Shown piece after piece: positions 2,681 to 40,690 of a DNA stretch of 64,000 bases. A program made the position numbers and the translations under genes. This stretch comes from Thelocarpon superellum (Eukaryota): assembly GCA_026025795.1 (NCBI GenBank), contig JAPEUG010000033.1:1-64000 (forward strand). The letters are read 5' to 3'. How positions within the stretch are numbered: the first letter of the stretch is position 1; every line of letters begins with the position of its first letter. The notes beneath the pieces are model-generated. The model did not search any database. It worked only from the letters and a program-made list of their open reading frames with translations, and was not told where the DNA came from.

Positions 2681-3867
2681 GAAGACCAATCACGCTCTGT
2701 TTCCCGGTCAGCGTCCCTTTCATCGGTCCTCAGACGTCAGGCACATACCATCTCCAAGGTCCACACCCGTCGAATCCACACCTTCAGTTTGCCCTCGACG
2801 CCCTCGACGCGTTCCAGCTCGACCCCCTCCCACCAACATCTCCGCGCCGGCTTCCGCCAAAAGAGCAACAACTTCTGCGCCATCCCCACCGCGTTGCTGT
2901 TGTTTGCGTCCGCGCCTTTCGTCTCCGTCCGGAGACGTGCCAGCGCGAGGCTGCAAATCACAGCCTTGTTCGGTTCCCCCGCCCGATGGCCCCACCGATC
3001 GTCGTTGCTGAACCCTCTATCGGCGATGCAGACGCGTCAGCCTCGCTCATGATGCAGCGCTGGCGAGCAGCCAAAGCTTACCCTGCGGTCAACATCTCAA
3101 TTAGATGTTGCTCCGTCGTCCCCGACTCTTCGCTCCGTCGAAGGCCCGAGAAGATACCGTCCTGTTTGAGCAGTGCCTTTCCCGCAGCACGCTTCACTTC
3201 CATCATCTCCGGCTGCTCGATATCCGGCTTGGGTGGGATGACGTAAAAGTCCAGGTCTTCACGCAACACAATGATGCCGGCTCGATCTTGCAGCATCTCT
3301 CGCGCCGATCCCGCCGCGGAATCGATCGACGCGGCGTTGGCCTCCGCCGCCGTGGGCGACGGCGATCTCGACGGGATCGTCTGCGCCACGTGCCGGAAGA
3401 AGTCGAGCATATACTGCAAGCTTGCCGCGTCGTACTGATTGTCCGTCAGCAGGGGGCCATGCAACCCCTCCGGTTCCCTGATCCACCATCGCACTTACAT
3501 CCACAGGATACACATCCCCGTCGCTGAAGGAGTTCATGTGGCCATCCGGAAGTAGGCCGTTCGGAAAAAGGGACAGGAGAACGAATTCCGGCAACGTCAA
3601 CAATTCATCCCTCGACAAAGTAAATCGGGCTCCGCTATCCACGTCCGAATGTTAGTCGAGGAGTCGTGCAGCCATGCCCTTAGCAGTCATGTCCTACCGA
3701 AGATCGAGATTGATGTTCTCATCCGCTCCAACGTCTGCCGCACGCCATTAGCCATCATGAGCCCTCTGCGAGCACACATCGGACCCACCCGTCAAGGTGT
3801 TGATCGGGGCCACTCCTCCCTGCTGGACCTGAGTGATGATGCTCGATGCTCCGCCCGCGGCAGCCAT
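2676..3867 (-). CDS. WHI2: Whi2-like BTB/POZ-type growth regulator / Psr phosphatase activator (possible non-AUG extension to 4281)
   Basis: Spliced exons give MAAAGGASSIITQVQQ, FTLSRDELLTLPEFVLLSLFPNGL, IIVLREDLDFYVIP, KLLLFWRKPARRCWW, KVWIRRVWTLEMSVIGLR*. Introns are GT-AG. Confidence 0.9.
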
Positions 3868-4840
3868 GAGGTAGGTGAATGAATTGAGCGGGCTCGGGCC
3901 CTCGGTATAGGGTGGAGGCGGTTCGGCGTCCTCGCCGCTTTTCGAGCTTGATTCAGTTTTGATGTCGACAGGGAGCGCGGCCTTGGTTTCCGCTACTGCA
4001 ATGTCGGCTGCCGTGGACGATGACGGGCAATCGCCCAGCGACGGGGCAAGCGCCAAGGCCGTGAGACCAGGTGTATCGGCGGCGGTAACAGCGGCGCCGC
4101 TCGAACCGACGTTGGGGCGGGGAGCGATGTAGAGCGATGCGAAGGCGGGCGGCCGCGGGGAGGAGGGCGGGGAGGAGACGTCAAGGCCCGCCGCGCCGTC
4201 GGTGCCTAAGAGGGGAGGCGATTGGTATGGCAGGGCGCCGAGCGCGGCCGAGCCGTCGCTGGAGACTCGTGGGCCCGACAAAGTGACGGACCGTCGATGC
4301 GCGCTCTAGTGAATGGGCCGTTGCGATGGTCACCCGCGTGAGATCACTTCATCTGCGGCGATTCACGAGGTTGAAGATAGGTCACGTGGGCGGTGCGTCG
4401 TGGGCCGGTGGCACTTGTCAATGGCGGAAAAGGTGGTGAATCATGGCAAGTTGTCCATGAGTGTTCCCGGATCGACGTCGTCAGGAGCCTGGTATGGCGC
4501 TGGTAGGGGGATTCAGCGCTACAGCTGAAGCTCGGTGGACATTGGTGGACTCCGGTTGACGGCCGACCAGCTGCTGCCGCTTGATTGGCTCCCGCTCCAC
4601 TAGCGACCACGGTGGCCGGCGACTTCCATCAACGATCTGTGGCCGACGCCTCGCCAGGTCCACGTCGTGTGCGCCCGGAGAGCTTTCGTTGTCTCACAGG
4701 ATCCACCCGTCGTTGTCATCGTTGCCTGTGTAGCCAGCAACACTATTGCTTGCACTGGCAGTAATGCGACCCGCACTCTCCCTGGCTCAATGGGGGCTAA
4801 AGTACGGTTCGAACGGCAAGCGGAGGCATTCCACGGTCCA

Positions 4841-37849: not shown

Positions 37850-39366
37850 TTACGCGGTGGCTTCCACTTGGGCCGGAGCCTGACCGACCGTGACCGCGTC
37901 CGGGACAACATCGCCGATGGCACCGTTGGCGTGCTCAGCAGCGGGCTCCTCGGCCTTGGGGGCCGCCTCTTCCGTCGTCGCGGCTTCCGGAGCAGCGGTG
38001 GGCTCGCTCTCGGTGGCAGCGGCGGTGCTCGACTCCGTGGCCGGGGCCGAGTCCTTCTTGCTATCACCAGACTTCACGGCGCGGCTGGGCTTGCGGAAGA
38101 TGCTGTTGAGCTTGGGCAGCGGGGAGATCTGGCCCGACTTCTTGGGCTCCTCGGCGGTCTCAGAGTCCGAGGTCACGGCAGACTTGACCTTGCGCGCGCT
38201 CAGTCCGCTGAAAAATGAAGAGCGGCGCTTCTCCTTGGCGGCCGGCTCCGCAGCGGGAGTGACGGGCGCAGCGGCCTCAGTCTCCGTGGCGGCGGGCTCG
38301 GCGGCCGGGGTTGCCTCGGTGGCCTCGGCAGCGGGCTCAGTGGCTGTGGCAGCCTCGGTGACGGCAGGCACCTCGGGCTCAGTGGCCGCGGGCGTCTCCT
38401 CGGTAGCCACCTTGGTGGCAGCGGCATCTACAGACTCGGAGATGCTGGGGCCAGCCGGGGTGATGTCTTTGTCCTTGGGCGGCACGCTAGGCGCCACGCT
38501 CTTTTCCGTCTTCTCAATCGTCGGGCTGGTCGACTCCTTCTTCTGGAACAGCGAGCCGAAGAAGCTGTTACGCTTGCTGTGCTTAGGGCTTTCCGTCGCG
38601 GCAGCGGTCGCAGTCGTTGTCGTTGAGGGCACGGCGGGCTCGACGGCAGCCGGGGCGGCGGCGGCTTCGGCGTCCTTGTCAGGCACGGACGGTGCGTCGG
38701 TCGTCGTATCCGCGACGGGCACAATGGGCTCGGCTACAAGAGACGTTAGGCACCTGTGTATGCAGCAGGAGAAGTATCGACGCAAGACTTACCCACAGCA
38801 GGCGTTTCGGTGGCGGCGCTGGCCTCGGTGGCCGGGGTCTCAGCGGAGGCCTTGGGCTCCTCCTTGGCGGCCTTCTCTTCGGCCTTCTCCTCCTTCTTCA
38901 GCTCCTTCTTGGCCTCGTATTCATCCTTCTTGTTGAGGATGGTGCCGAGGATGCCGGTGCGCTTGCGGGAAGCGGAGCGGTCCTTGTTCTTGTCCTTCTT
39001 GGTGCCGAGGCTGCTAAAGATGGACGAGCGACCCTTGCGTTCGGTCGAGGCAGGGGCCACAGGCGTCGTGGGCGCAGCGTCAGTAGCAGGAGCGGCAGCG
39101 TCGGCGGCGGGCTCCGCGGGCGTCTCCGCCACGGGCTCCGTCGGCTTAGGGGCCTCCTCAGCAGCCGGGATCTCCGCCGCGGGCTCTACCGGCGCCTCGG
39201 TAGGCTTCTCTGAGCTCGAGGCGGCGGGAGCCTCTGCGGGCGTGGCCTCGGCGGCCTTCTCAGGCTCGGCAGGAGTGGAGGCGGAGGCGGCGGGAGCAGT
39301 GCTCGACTCGGCCACGACGGGCTTCTCCGCCACAAGCTCCTCAATGGGCTTCTGCACTTCAGTCAT
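37850..39366 (-). CDS. Ala/Glu/Pro/Thr-rich low-complexity protein with basic (K/R)R-x-S-(F/I)F motifs
   Basis: ATG at 39366, one intron (~38792-38738), strong GC3 bias. Repeated motifs RKRTGILG, KRNSFFG and KRRSSFFS. Confidence 0.85.
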
Positions 39367-40690
39367 GGTGACGGTAGATGAGAGCGGCTGGAGCGTATGT
39401 AGGTGGACTACGTGGGTATAAAGGTGCGTCGACAGCACGATAGGTGAGGGAGGTGGCGGGTGATGGGTATGGTAGCACAAGTTGCGAGAAATAGACGATC
39501 AAAGATACCAGCTCGGTGGTGCACGAGACAAACGGTGGAAGATAACGGTCAAAGGGTGCACGAGCTTGGGCACGGGCACACACGCAGGTGGAGAAGTGGA
39601 AGCTGAGGGAGGGGTGCACAAGACAGGTGCAAGGCAGTAACAAGGCCGGAAGGTCGGACGGATGTTTCGGTGTCAGGAGGATGGGCGAAGTGCGGGAGAG
39701 AATGGGGGTGTGTGGTGAGTGGTGCGAGAGGATGTGAAATAGGGGAGGCAGAAGGCCAGACGGCGAGAAAAGCTCCCTTCGCTCGTGCTCTGCACCCTAC
39801 ACCCTGCACCTGCACCCTGCACCCTATACCCTGCGCCCTACGCCCTTCGCTCGCTCGCTCGCTCGTTCGCTCGCTGGCGCATGCAAAAAGCACAAGTCGA
39901 TTTCCCGGGCGGCGCTCAAATGAGTCGGCAAGTAGCGAGCGCCCAGGACTCGAGCTAGAGAAGCAGCCAGGGTTTCGCTTTTACCCTGAGCGAGCCGAGC
40001 TAGCACGCGATTGGACTACCCCCCGTCGACAAATTGCTGTTGGTTGGTCGCGCGCATCCACGACCTTCTCCGTCCTCTCGACCCCTACACTACGGGTACG
40101 CCTGGGGACGGGGCCCGTCCTGGAACGGGTCCGGGCGATGCGTAGCGAGTCGGTGTCAGTCGGCGACCCTGCAGCGGCCGTTGCCCTGTCGGCACAGTAC
40201 GACCAGAGGCAGGTACCTTCCAGTGCTTGGGCCAGGCTACTCGTGCGGTAGTTTCCGAGTCATCATTGTCACGGTCGTTCGTTCGTCTCCGTGGCTAGGC
40301 GGCCACCTATGGCTAGGTAGCCGTAGTAACGGCTAGGCAATAGTCTCCACAGCCCACCGTCTGCCCAGGTGCAGCTGACCTCGTGATGCGACCAAACCCA
40401 CCATCGTCTCTTATCGCCCGACCGATGCAACCCAGGGTCTGGGAAATATTCTGGATACGGAGCAGACGACTACCTTCCTCGAGTGGCATATGTCTTGCAC
40501 CGGGGCGCATCCTCGCACACTCTCGCACACCGCATCTCCCTCACACCCACACCCAGCCGTTCATTGATCATTTATCCTCTATCCTCTCATCGTGATTCGA
40601 CCCGGGCGCCGGCCCACCTACATAAACGTGCGGTGAGACCGAGCCAGCCCCCGGTCCCCTCCCCCTCCTCTGCACGCGATCGCTGTCGCC

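Follow-up and report, generated by a model that had tools for sequence, protein, structure and literature searches.

The lichen-related fungus Thelocarpon superellum (Pezizomycotina, Thelocarpales) and most filamentous ascomycetes very probably make, as judged from the comparison of related sequences, a longer form of Whi2, a regulator of stress and nutrient responses. A UUG would be the start codon of this form, which contains a motif for the docking of a ubiquitin ligase. The gene, WHI2, was studied on a stretch of 64,000 nucleotides (nt) of contig JAPEUG010000033.1 (assembly GCA_026025795.1, positions 1 to 64,000), called the window below. All positions are window coordinates and WHI2 is read on the minus strand throughout. 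A sequence-only reading of this DNA had proposed that an N-terminal extension of Whi2 is translated from the UUG, that the AUG at 3867 serves as a second start by leaky scanning, and that the long form couples Whi2 to the ubiquitin ligase Rsp5. The core of the proposal, i.e. the UUG-started extension and the second start, is upheld by coding-type substitution, an invariant TTG at the edge of conservation, replacement of this codon by near-cognate codons only, and depletion of ATG; the coupling to Rsp5 does not reach the same level and is treated below as tentative. Overall, the non-AUG extension together with the two-start design of WHI2 can be regarded as likely, with strong support from the comparative evidence.

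The features described earlier for the window were found in place. Upstream of the first ATG of the gene (3867-3865) the WHI2 frame is open for 146 codons, up to an in-frame TAG at 4308-4306, and none of the three frames contains an ATG over 3868-4351; the next ATG, at 4352, opens the short frame ATG AAG TGA. The proposed start, TTG 4281-4279, lies 8 codons downstream of the TAG in the context gtc ACT TTG tcg, with A at −3 (4284) and C at −4 (4285). This TTG (gtCActTTGtcg) is the first in-frame near-cognate codon past the TAG, the next being a CTG at 4233. The distance from TTG to ATG is exactly 138 codons. The 137 codons that follow the start codon (4278-3868) encode a Ser/Pro/Ala-rich extension conserved as protein, with the expected PPPY at 3918-3907. 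Windows of 484 nt without any ATG are rare in the 64 kb (86 of 63,516 on the minus strand, 0 of 63,516 on the plus strand), and an ATG-free run of such length is unlikely to arise by chance. Of the four longest runs without ATG on the minus strand, three (497-516 nt) are located elsewhere, at 37850-39498, where overlapping open frames on that strand encode a Met-poor low-complexity protein rich in Ala, Glu, Pro and Thr; these runs are explained by composition, not by start-codon logic.

Since open frames are cheap at 59% G+C, the decisive support has to come from comparison with other fungi. Metagenome contigs were scanned with the two most conserved peptides, which gave 326 stretches; 209 of these were confirmed and the best 80 kept. 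Together with the window the 80 loci comprise 64 distinct extension sequences (63 recognised by pattern and L010 by inspection). Six distinct sequences are cut by the contig end and 57 are complete. Lineage and class names given to metagenome loci are our own reading of their similarity to named matches.

All 57 complete distinct sequences keep an open frame over 135-257 codons (median 165) ahead of the ATG, bounded by a stop at its far end, even though the lengths vary. An in-frame upstream ATG is missing in 54 of the 57. Across 45 sequences, the entropy at codon positions 1, 2 and 3 amounts to 0.34, 0.14 and 1.42 bits (22 codons before the ATG and 20 from the ATG on), and the third-position variation is alike on either side of the ATG. 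This is the coding-type conservation that the earlier reading had called for. With variation concentrated at third codon positions, merely RNA-level conservation is excluded, and sequence comparison shows the extension to be protein-coding and without an AUG start.

The same data bear on a different view of the region, namely that it is an untranslated 5' leader conserved for regulation at the RNA level, its open frame being a by-product of G+C-rich sequence. Such a leader would be in accordance with the frequency of open frames at this G+C content, other frames of the stretch being open for 65-75 codons, and with the weak periodicity of G+C by codon position in the extension (0.64/0.65/0.74). 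It does not account for the concentration of change at third positions, equal before and after the ATG, for a frame kept open in 57/57 sequences despite length changes, or for amino-acid motifs that persist under synonymous codon turnover. Additionally, RNAalifold found no consensus RNA structure in 37 segments covering −6 to +66. We therefore consider an untranslated leader extremely unlikely.

Conservation at the protein level was investigated with the translated exon 1 as query against longer proteins. The search returned 204 matches with E ≤ 0.001, of which 120 were listed; 104 of the 120 were aligned by an anchor pattern, and 16 with variant anchors were left out of the alignment. By their source names the listed homologues belong to Pezizomycotina of many orders, and one labelled Carpinus, a tree, is probably a contaminant. 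Names supplied by the sources include 'general stress response protein Whi2' and 'WHI2-like protein P4H10.16c'. The extension is kept as protein in 120/120 listed homologues. Among the aligned homologues the Met of the first ATG is invariant (104/104), and it is embedded in the almost invariant stretch EPPP[P/A]Y[T/S]EGxSPLxxFxY[L/V]-M-AAAGGAxSIITQVQQ. Further recurring motifs are RPPPFSSLY, AETKAALPxDxK and, far N-terminal, [T/K]-L-S-x-x-R-D-S-S-D-G; in the window the corresponding conserved motifs read PRPPAFASLY (4158-4129), AETKAALP (3993-3970) and LSGPRVSSDG (4281-4252). Met accounts for 18 of 12,725 residues in the extensions, mostly at annotated starts or in doubtful parts of models. 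The start of budding-yeast Whi2, we assume, lies near the IITQV motif.

A Pfam search of the extension, of the homologue P0002 and of the deposited NCBI model P0001 revealed no family in the extension. None was found in P0002 or in the WHI2 part of P0001 either, the BTB/POZ domain not being recovered. For Neurospora crassa WHI-2, BTB domains were reported via InterProScan (PMC6987382). A sequence search of the PDB with a profile of 30 homologues gave 0 matches. The AlphaFold2 model of P0002, built from a 30-sequence alignment, is poor (mean predicted local distance difference test score, pLDDT, 45.7); residues 1-190 show block pLDDT values of 25-52 and no secondary structure, which is compatible with disorder. 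As far as this model can tell, the extension is probably disordered.

The start codon itself was examined in a protein alignment of 45 distinct sequences, which is unbiased as to codon. In the column of the window TTG, 35 of 42 sequences carry TTG, the others being CTT (4), CTC (1), TTA (1) and CCT (1), with a gap in 3. The seven codons CTT, CTC, TTA and CCT, none of them near-cognate, were rejected as candidate replacements: inspection of the codons traced them to misalignment of two lineages in which the start motif has moved or changed. In the 35 sequences with TTG, position −4 is always C (35/35) and position −3 is A in 83%. Upstream of about −12 no conservation is seen in these 35 sequences, and the downstream codons are conserved at positions 1 and 2. 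The conserved near-cognate codon predicted at the 5' edge of conservation is thus present, with exceptions that are nearly all near-cognate as well.

Codon inspection of all loci gave TTG in a C(−4)/purine(−3) context at [T/K/A]-L-[S/D] in 46 distinct sequences (the window, 44 metagenome sequences and L010); it weighs against this tally that TTG in context was searched for, which makes it partly circular and leaves 35/42 as the unbiased figure. Seven sequences of one lineage show ACG-NNN-TTG/CTG, in the form ACC ACG GCG TTG TCA or something very similar, with CTG in a single sequence. This lineage is taken as Chaetothyriales-like by its similarity to named Fonsecaea and Exophiala matches. Four sequences carry GTG with A at −3: in three of them (L019, L034, L047) the sequence is ACG or ATC GTG GAT TCA GAC GGC, with G at +4, and in the fourth (L069) it is ACC GTG TCG. 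One locus (L030) has CTG at the TTG position, and five sequences are truncated. The encoded amino acid shifts between Leu and Val, yet the codon remains one step from AUG.

Two further properties distinguish this codon from its surroundings. The residue before the start Leu is T, K, R, N or S, all of which can be coded by A-first codons; that these variable residues share nothing but an A-first codon speaks for a Kozak-type constraint, not a protein constraint. As a control, the 336 remaining Leu codons of these extensions were counted, and 26 of them are TTG; three conserved Leu columns use CTC, CTT, CTA and TTA, with TTG in 2/115. Clustering of the TTG-bearing sequences by amino-acid identity gives 20 groups at 70% and 11 at 60%. 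In many loci an in-frame stop lies just 2-9 codons upstream of the TTG. With the sequence TAA CCC GAC TTG in L062, there is no room for another start or a splice acceptor. From these observations we infer that UUG 4281 is the codon actually used.

Nine loci (L015, L027, L031, L036, L042, L050, L053, L061 and L078) show a predicted stem from the TTG to about +45 in which the TTG is paired, of the form TTGTCGG...CCGACAA around GACACG...CGTGTC. These loci are taken as lichen-fungus (Lecanoromycete-type) sequences by similarity to named matches.

A conventional AUG in a small spliced upstream exon would make non-AUG initiation unnecessary. Several points fit such an exon. The TAG at 4308-4306 could be a 3' splice site and is so used in the NCBI model, and a CAG occurs about 8 nt before the TTG in about half of the related loci. 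Moreover, some homologues are annotated with a starting Met 6-25 residues before the motif, which may stand for a real ATG or for a predicted mini-exon and has to be counted against UUG initiation as well. In the window, however, the upstream ATGs at 4352, 4444, 4458 and 4542 open reading frames of 2-8 codons, none with an in-frame GT donor that would join the WHI2 frame, and the NCBI model needs an intron of about 580 nt and takes its ATG from another gene. The upstream parts borrowed in the various species represent 10 unrelated gene families. Conservation collapses upstream of −12, the 6 nt between stop and TTG in L062 contain no AG, and a splice junction does not predict an invariant TTG that is replaced only by GTG, CTG or ACG. 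Overall, a spliced upstream exon appears very unlikely.

The deposited model P0001 joins ...NRGTKY to SAHRRSVTL... and thereby fuses a TRM8-like methyltransferase to WHI2, with an intron of roughly 580 nt (4885-4306) that ends at the TAG 4308-4306. If the model were right, both would form one fused protein of 632 amino acids. P0001, the best database match and entered by its source as a hypothetical protein of a T. superellum metagenome-assembled genome, is indeed identical (100%) to the window query over the extension, and it carries the Pfam family PF02390. The methyltransferase frame, in contrast, has its own stop at 4843-4841 on the minus strand, and the fusion drops the last residues of that frame in addition to requiring the long intron. 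In models from other species WHI2 is joined to a DPP3, G-patch, ABC ATPase, alcohol dehydrogenase or fatty-acid hydroxylase protein, among others; such different partners fit an artefact of gene prediction. The probability of a genuine fusion is practically negligible. Pfam domains of neighbouring genes occur in 37 of the 120 listed models and represent 10 unrelated families, among them methyltransferase, protein kinase, amidohydrolase, G-patch, alcohol dehydrogenase, ABC ATPase, fatty-acid hydroxylase, DPP3 and adenosylhomocysteinase. For Whi2 alone Pfam gives no match, and the predictors borrow a neighbouring gene because they see coding potential and find no ATG. Several unfused Whi2 proteins among the listed matches are named 'dipeptidyl-peptidase III', presumably copied from fusion models.

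Depletion of ATG, likewise sought in the relatives, is pronounced. Between TTG and ATG, 9 ATGs in all frames were observed in 45 sequences compared to 196 expected from base composition, and 37 of the 45 contain none. The density is 0.45/kb in this interval, whereas the flanks of 400 nt reach 13.3/kb before the TTG and 22.2/kb past the ATG, so that the roughly 30-fold depletion is confined to the interval between the two codons. The normal to high density in the flanks of the same loci argues that selection purges AUG exactly in the interval crossed by scanning ribosomes. The first ATG, a start of the annotated type for the short form, shows zero nucleotide entropy in the 45 sequences. Purging of ATG together with an invariant Met codon argues for the use of both starts, and we infer that both forms are made.

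The short form has a counterpart in the literature. N. crassa WHI-2 is treated as a protein of 297 amino acids, the same length as the short form of the window, and complementation of the deletion by a Pccg-1::whi-2-gfp construct has been reported (PMC6987382). Following this report, the short form appears functional by itself. The mass-spectrometry table of the CSP-6 paper gives NCU10518 as '298 aa' with 79 total and 26 unique peptides, without their positions.

Alternatively, only the UUG-started long protein could be functional, with the AUG at 3867 as an internal Met and the ATG-free interval merely averting out-of-frame initiation and decay of the mRNA. The sequence SPLxSFTY[LV]-M-AAAGGAxSIITQVQQ is continuous and nearly invariant on either side of the Met, and the −3 base of the AUG is often C, as would suit an internal residue. 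A weak UUG, on the other hand, must let most ribosomes pass, and the next AUG they reach is in frame and invariant; the purging of ATG ends exactly at the codon of AUG 3867; and the reported complementation was obtained with the 297-amino-acid N. crassa reading frame under a foreign promoter. A functional long form alone is thus improbable in our view.

Several observations weigh against initiation at the UUG and against two starts. The conserved motif surrounding the Met could mean that it is maintained as a residue and not as a start. An in-frame ATG is present in 3 of the 57 complete sequences, which belong to one lineage (L029/L032, L040, L059), 101 codons upstream of the TTG; there it is followed by out-of-frame ATGs. 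One locus (L067) has no clear equivalent of the start codon. The base at +4 is U in 33/42 sequences instead of the preferred G, and UUG is not known as one of the most efficient near-cognate codons in extracts of Neurospora. A conserved hairpin downstream of the UUG, searched for with RNAalifold in 37 distinct segments from −6 to +66, was not found.

Despite these points, the two-start reading describes the data best in our judgement, and a possible course of events can be outlined on the basis of the sequences. In Pezizomycotina generally, WHI2 would give two proteins from one mRNA. Scanning ribosomes would meet UUG 4281 first, in its C(−4)A(−3) context, and a minority would initiate there with Met-tRNAi. 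The product would be the long form of a predicted 435 amino acids, its 138 extra residues being a probably disordered tail with conserved short motifs, an invariant PPxY among them. Most ribosomes would scan on through 411 nt that selection keeps free of AUG in three frames, and initiate at AUG 3867 to give the form of 297 amino acids known as WHI-2 in the literature. The ratio of long to short form would follow the stringency of start-codon selection and possibly the supply of ternary complex after a short upstream open reading frame (uORF).

The last ATG before the UUG opens such a uORF in the window, ATG AAG TGA (Met-Lys-stop, 4352-4344), 71 nt upstream of the UUG. Among the 41 distinct sequences having an ATG upstream of the TTG, the nearest one opens a uORF of 2-3 codons in 26, a count that is inflated by related sequences. 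In comparison, 10.8% of 1,724 upstream ATGs open uORFs of this kind. In the related loci (L001-L078) these short uORFs comprise 11 different sequences and lie 34-217 nt upstream of the TTG. Provided that the mRNA starts upstream of the uORF, reinitiation after it may tie the use of the UUG to the supply of ternary complex, by analogy with GCN4/cpc-1.

An extended version of this idea considers long Whi2 a translationally gated adaptor of Rsp5, with the isoform ratio reading out amino-acid supply. The uORF of 2-3 codons (in the window 4352-4344) would make ribosomes reinitiate. With plentiful ternary complex they would be competent again by the UUG and produce the PPxY-bearing long form, which would bring Rsp5/HulA to the Whi2-Psr1/CSP-6 complex at the cell periphery; under amino-acid starvation, with phosphorylation of eIF2alpha, the UUG would be skipped and the short form made alone. 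We regard this version as unlikely. If it were true, the ratio of Whi2 isoforms would feed into TORC1 control and endocytosis in filamentous fungi.

The PPPY of the window (3918-3907) is part of EPPPPYTEG (3924-3898) and lies 14 residues before the Met encoded by the AUG. At this distance, PPPY or PPAY occurs in 120/120 listed homologues (115 by pattern, i.e. 61 PPPY and 54 PPAY, and 5 Aureobasidium sequences by eye), and a PPxY stands at the same position in 63/63 distinct sequences derived from DNA. Motifs of the PPxY type are classically bound by WW domains of group I, and the main protein with such domains in fungi is the Nedd4-type ligase Rsp5/HulA. The short form lacks the motif, which is encoded ahead of the AUG, so that binding to Rsp5/HulA would be restricted to the long form. 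Recruitment by the PPxY of the long form is suggested by the conservation of the motif and is proposed here tentatively, as a possibility with somewhat less than even prospects; it could serve turnover of the long form, or this form could act as an adaptor at the cell periphery. In N. crassa, WHI-2 is reported to occur together with the phosphatase CSP-6 at the cell periphery and to have an effect on endocytosis (PMC6987382), and the complex with the Psr1/CSP-6 phosphatase is described for the N. crassa and Magnaporthe oryzae homologues (PMC5800702, PMC8295519). Location and effect on endocytosis would fit a role linked to Rsp5. A literature link between Whi2 and Rsp5 was not found, the papers richest in Whi2 mentioning Rsp5 merely in passing.

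A second PY motif, SPPP[Q/R]YP, occurs about 80-100 residues upstream of the invariant one in 49 of 115 listed homologues (including P0013, P0042, P0058 and P0100), which are Leotiomycete and Sordariomycete proteins by our reading of the source names. In its place the window shows a degenerate LPYQSPP at about 4230-4215.

WHI2 is a gene of six exons on the minus strand, lying downstream of the TRM8-like methyltransferase frame. Exon 1 of the long form extends over 3789-4281, of which the short form uses 3867-3789. Exons 2 (3698-3734), 3 (3499-3634) and 4 (3082-3434) follow, the bounds of exons 1 to 4 being fitted to P0001 with GT-AG introns. Exon 5 (2749-3016) was read from the sequence and confirmed on the joined coding sequence, and exon 6 (2676-2696) ends with the stop TGA at 2678-2676. 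Joined from ATG 3867, the coding sequence measures 894 nt and its product, the predicted short form, ends with ...WTLEMSVIGLR*. The stop is located inside a perfect tandem repeat, (CGTTGA)x5, at 2652-2681 of the minus strand, and four further in-frame TGA codons follow the first one, one per two codons. Downstream of WHI2, an open frame at 852-1553 of the same strand encodes a tandem Ser/Pro/Leu repeat of the SPSLPLSL type.

Fungal Whi2 has been studied as the short protein, in Neurospora with respect to cell fusion and clock output, and in the rice blast fungus and Colletotrichum with respect to TOR signalling and infection. If the long form exists, constructs, interaction screens and proteomic databases lack roughly one third of the protein, its best-conserved linear motif included, and constructs with a foreign promoter express one of two forms only. 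It would also connect a nutrient regulator with the Rsp5 ubiquitin system in a simple, testable way. Current gene annotations would then have missed or mangled this form. The non-AUG start would further explain a systematic annotation error, in which predictors fuse WHI2 to whichever gene lies upstream and the resulting names spread to plain Whi2. In the searched literature, which covered journals outside subscription, no description of an extension or a non-AUG start of Whi2 was found. Extensions of this kind, with a start other than AUG, are already known from cpc-1 and KCTD11.

Human KCTD11, a BTB protein grouped with Whi2 and described as having its BTB domain in common with the yeast protein, is reported to be translated from an upstream AUU, which adds 39 residues (PMC6566181). 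As proposed for WHI2, the annotated AUG lies too far downstream and the missing N-terminal part is found in frame just upstream, with a non-AUG start. In KCTD11, however, the 39 extra residues complete the BTB fold and the start is AUU, whereas in WHI2 138 extra, disordered-looking residues with a PPxY lie outside the BTB core and the proposed start is UUG. The two extensions have no recognised homology.

In yeast, dual isoforms from near-cognate starts are known for GRS1 (UUG), ALA1 (ACG-ACG) and HFA1 (AUU). They follow the principle proposed for WHI2, with one mRNA, a weak near-cognate start upstream, a downstream AUG reached by leaky scanning, and products that differ in their N-termini. 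In contrast to WHI2, the extension in these genes is a mitochondrial presequence that changes the location of the protein; that of WHI2 is Ser/Pro-rich with a PPxY and has no presequence character.

Bsd2, Bul1/2, Ear1/Ssh4 and the arrestin-related proteins are adaptors or substrates of Rsp5/Nedd4 with PY motifs. Whi2 resembles them in carrying an invariant PPxY in a probably disordered segment and in being a protein of the cell periphery that affects endocytosis. Unlike for these proteins, no binding, ubiquitination or genetic link to Rsp5 was found in the literature for Whi2, which is a candidate member of this group by its motif.

The closest parallel is cpc-1 of N. crassa, the GCN4 homologue, for which N-terminal extensions from near-cognate codons, conserved in Pezizomycotina, are described (Ivanov et al. 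2017, PMC5487733); whi2 has 0 occurrences in that paper. Both genes have an AUG-less in-frame extension, for cpc-1 reported as conserved over >100 species (PMC5487733), well-placed near-cognate codons preceded by A at −3, a leader with short uORFs, and a start that annotation has left unresolved. For cpc-1, initiation was reported from in vitro experiments and ribosome profiling (PMC5487733), whereas for WHI2 it is deduced from sequence. Further, several near-cognate codons are candidates in cpc-1, and its extension bypasses a long, inhibitory uORF2, whereas in WHI2 essentially one codon, UUG and sometimes GUG, CUG or ACG, stands exactly where conservation begins, and from there to the main AUG the sequence is free of AUG. 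If true, WHI2 would join cpc-1 as a second clean example of near-cognate initiation that is deeply conserved among filamentous ascomycetes.

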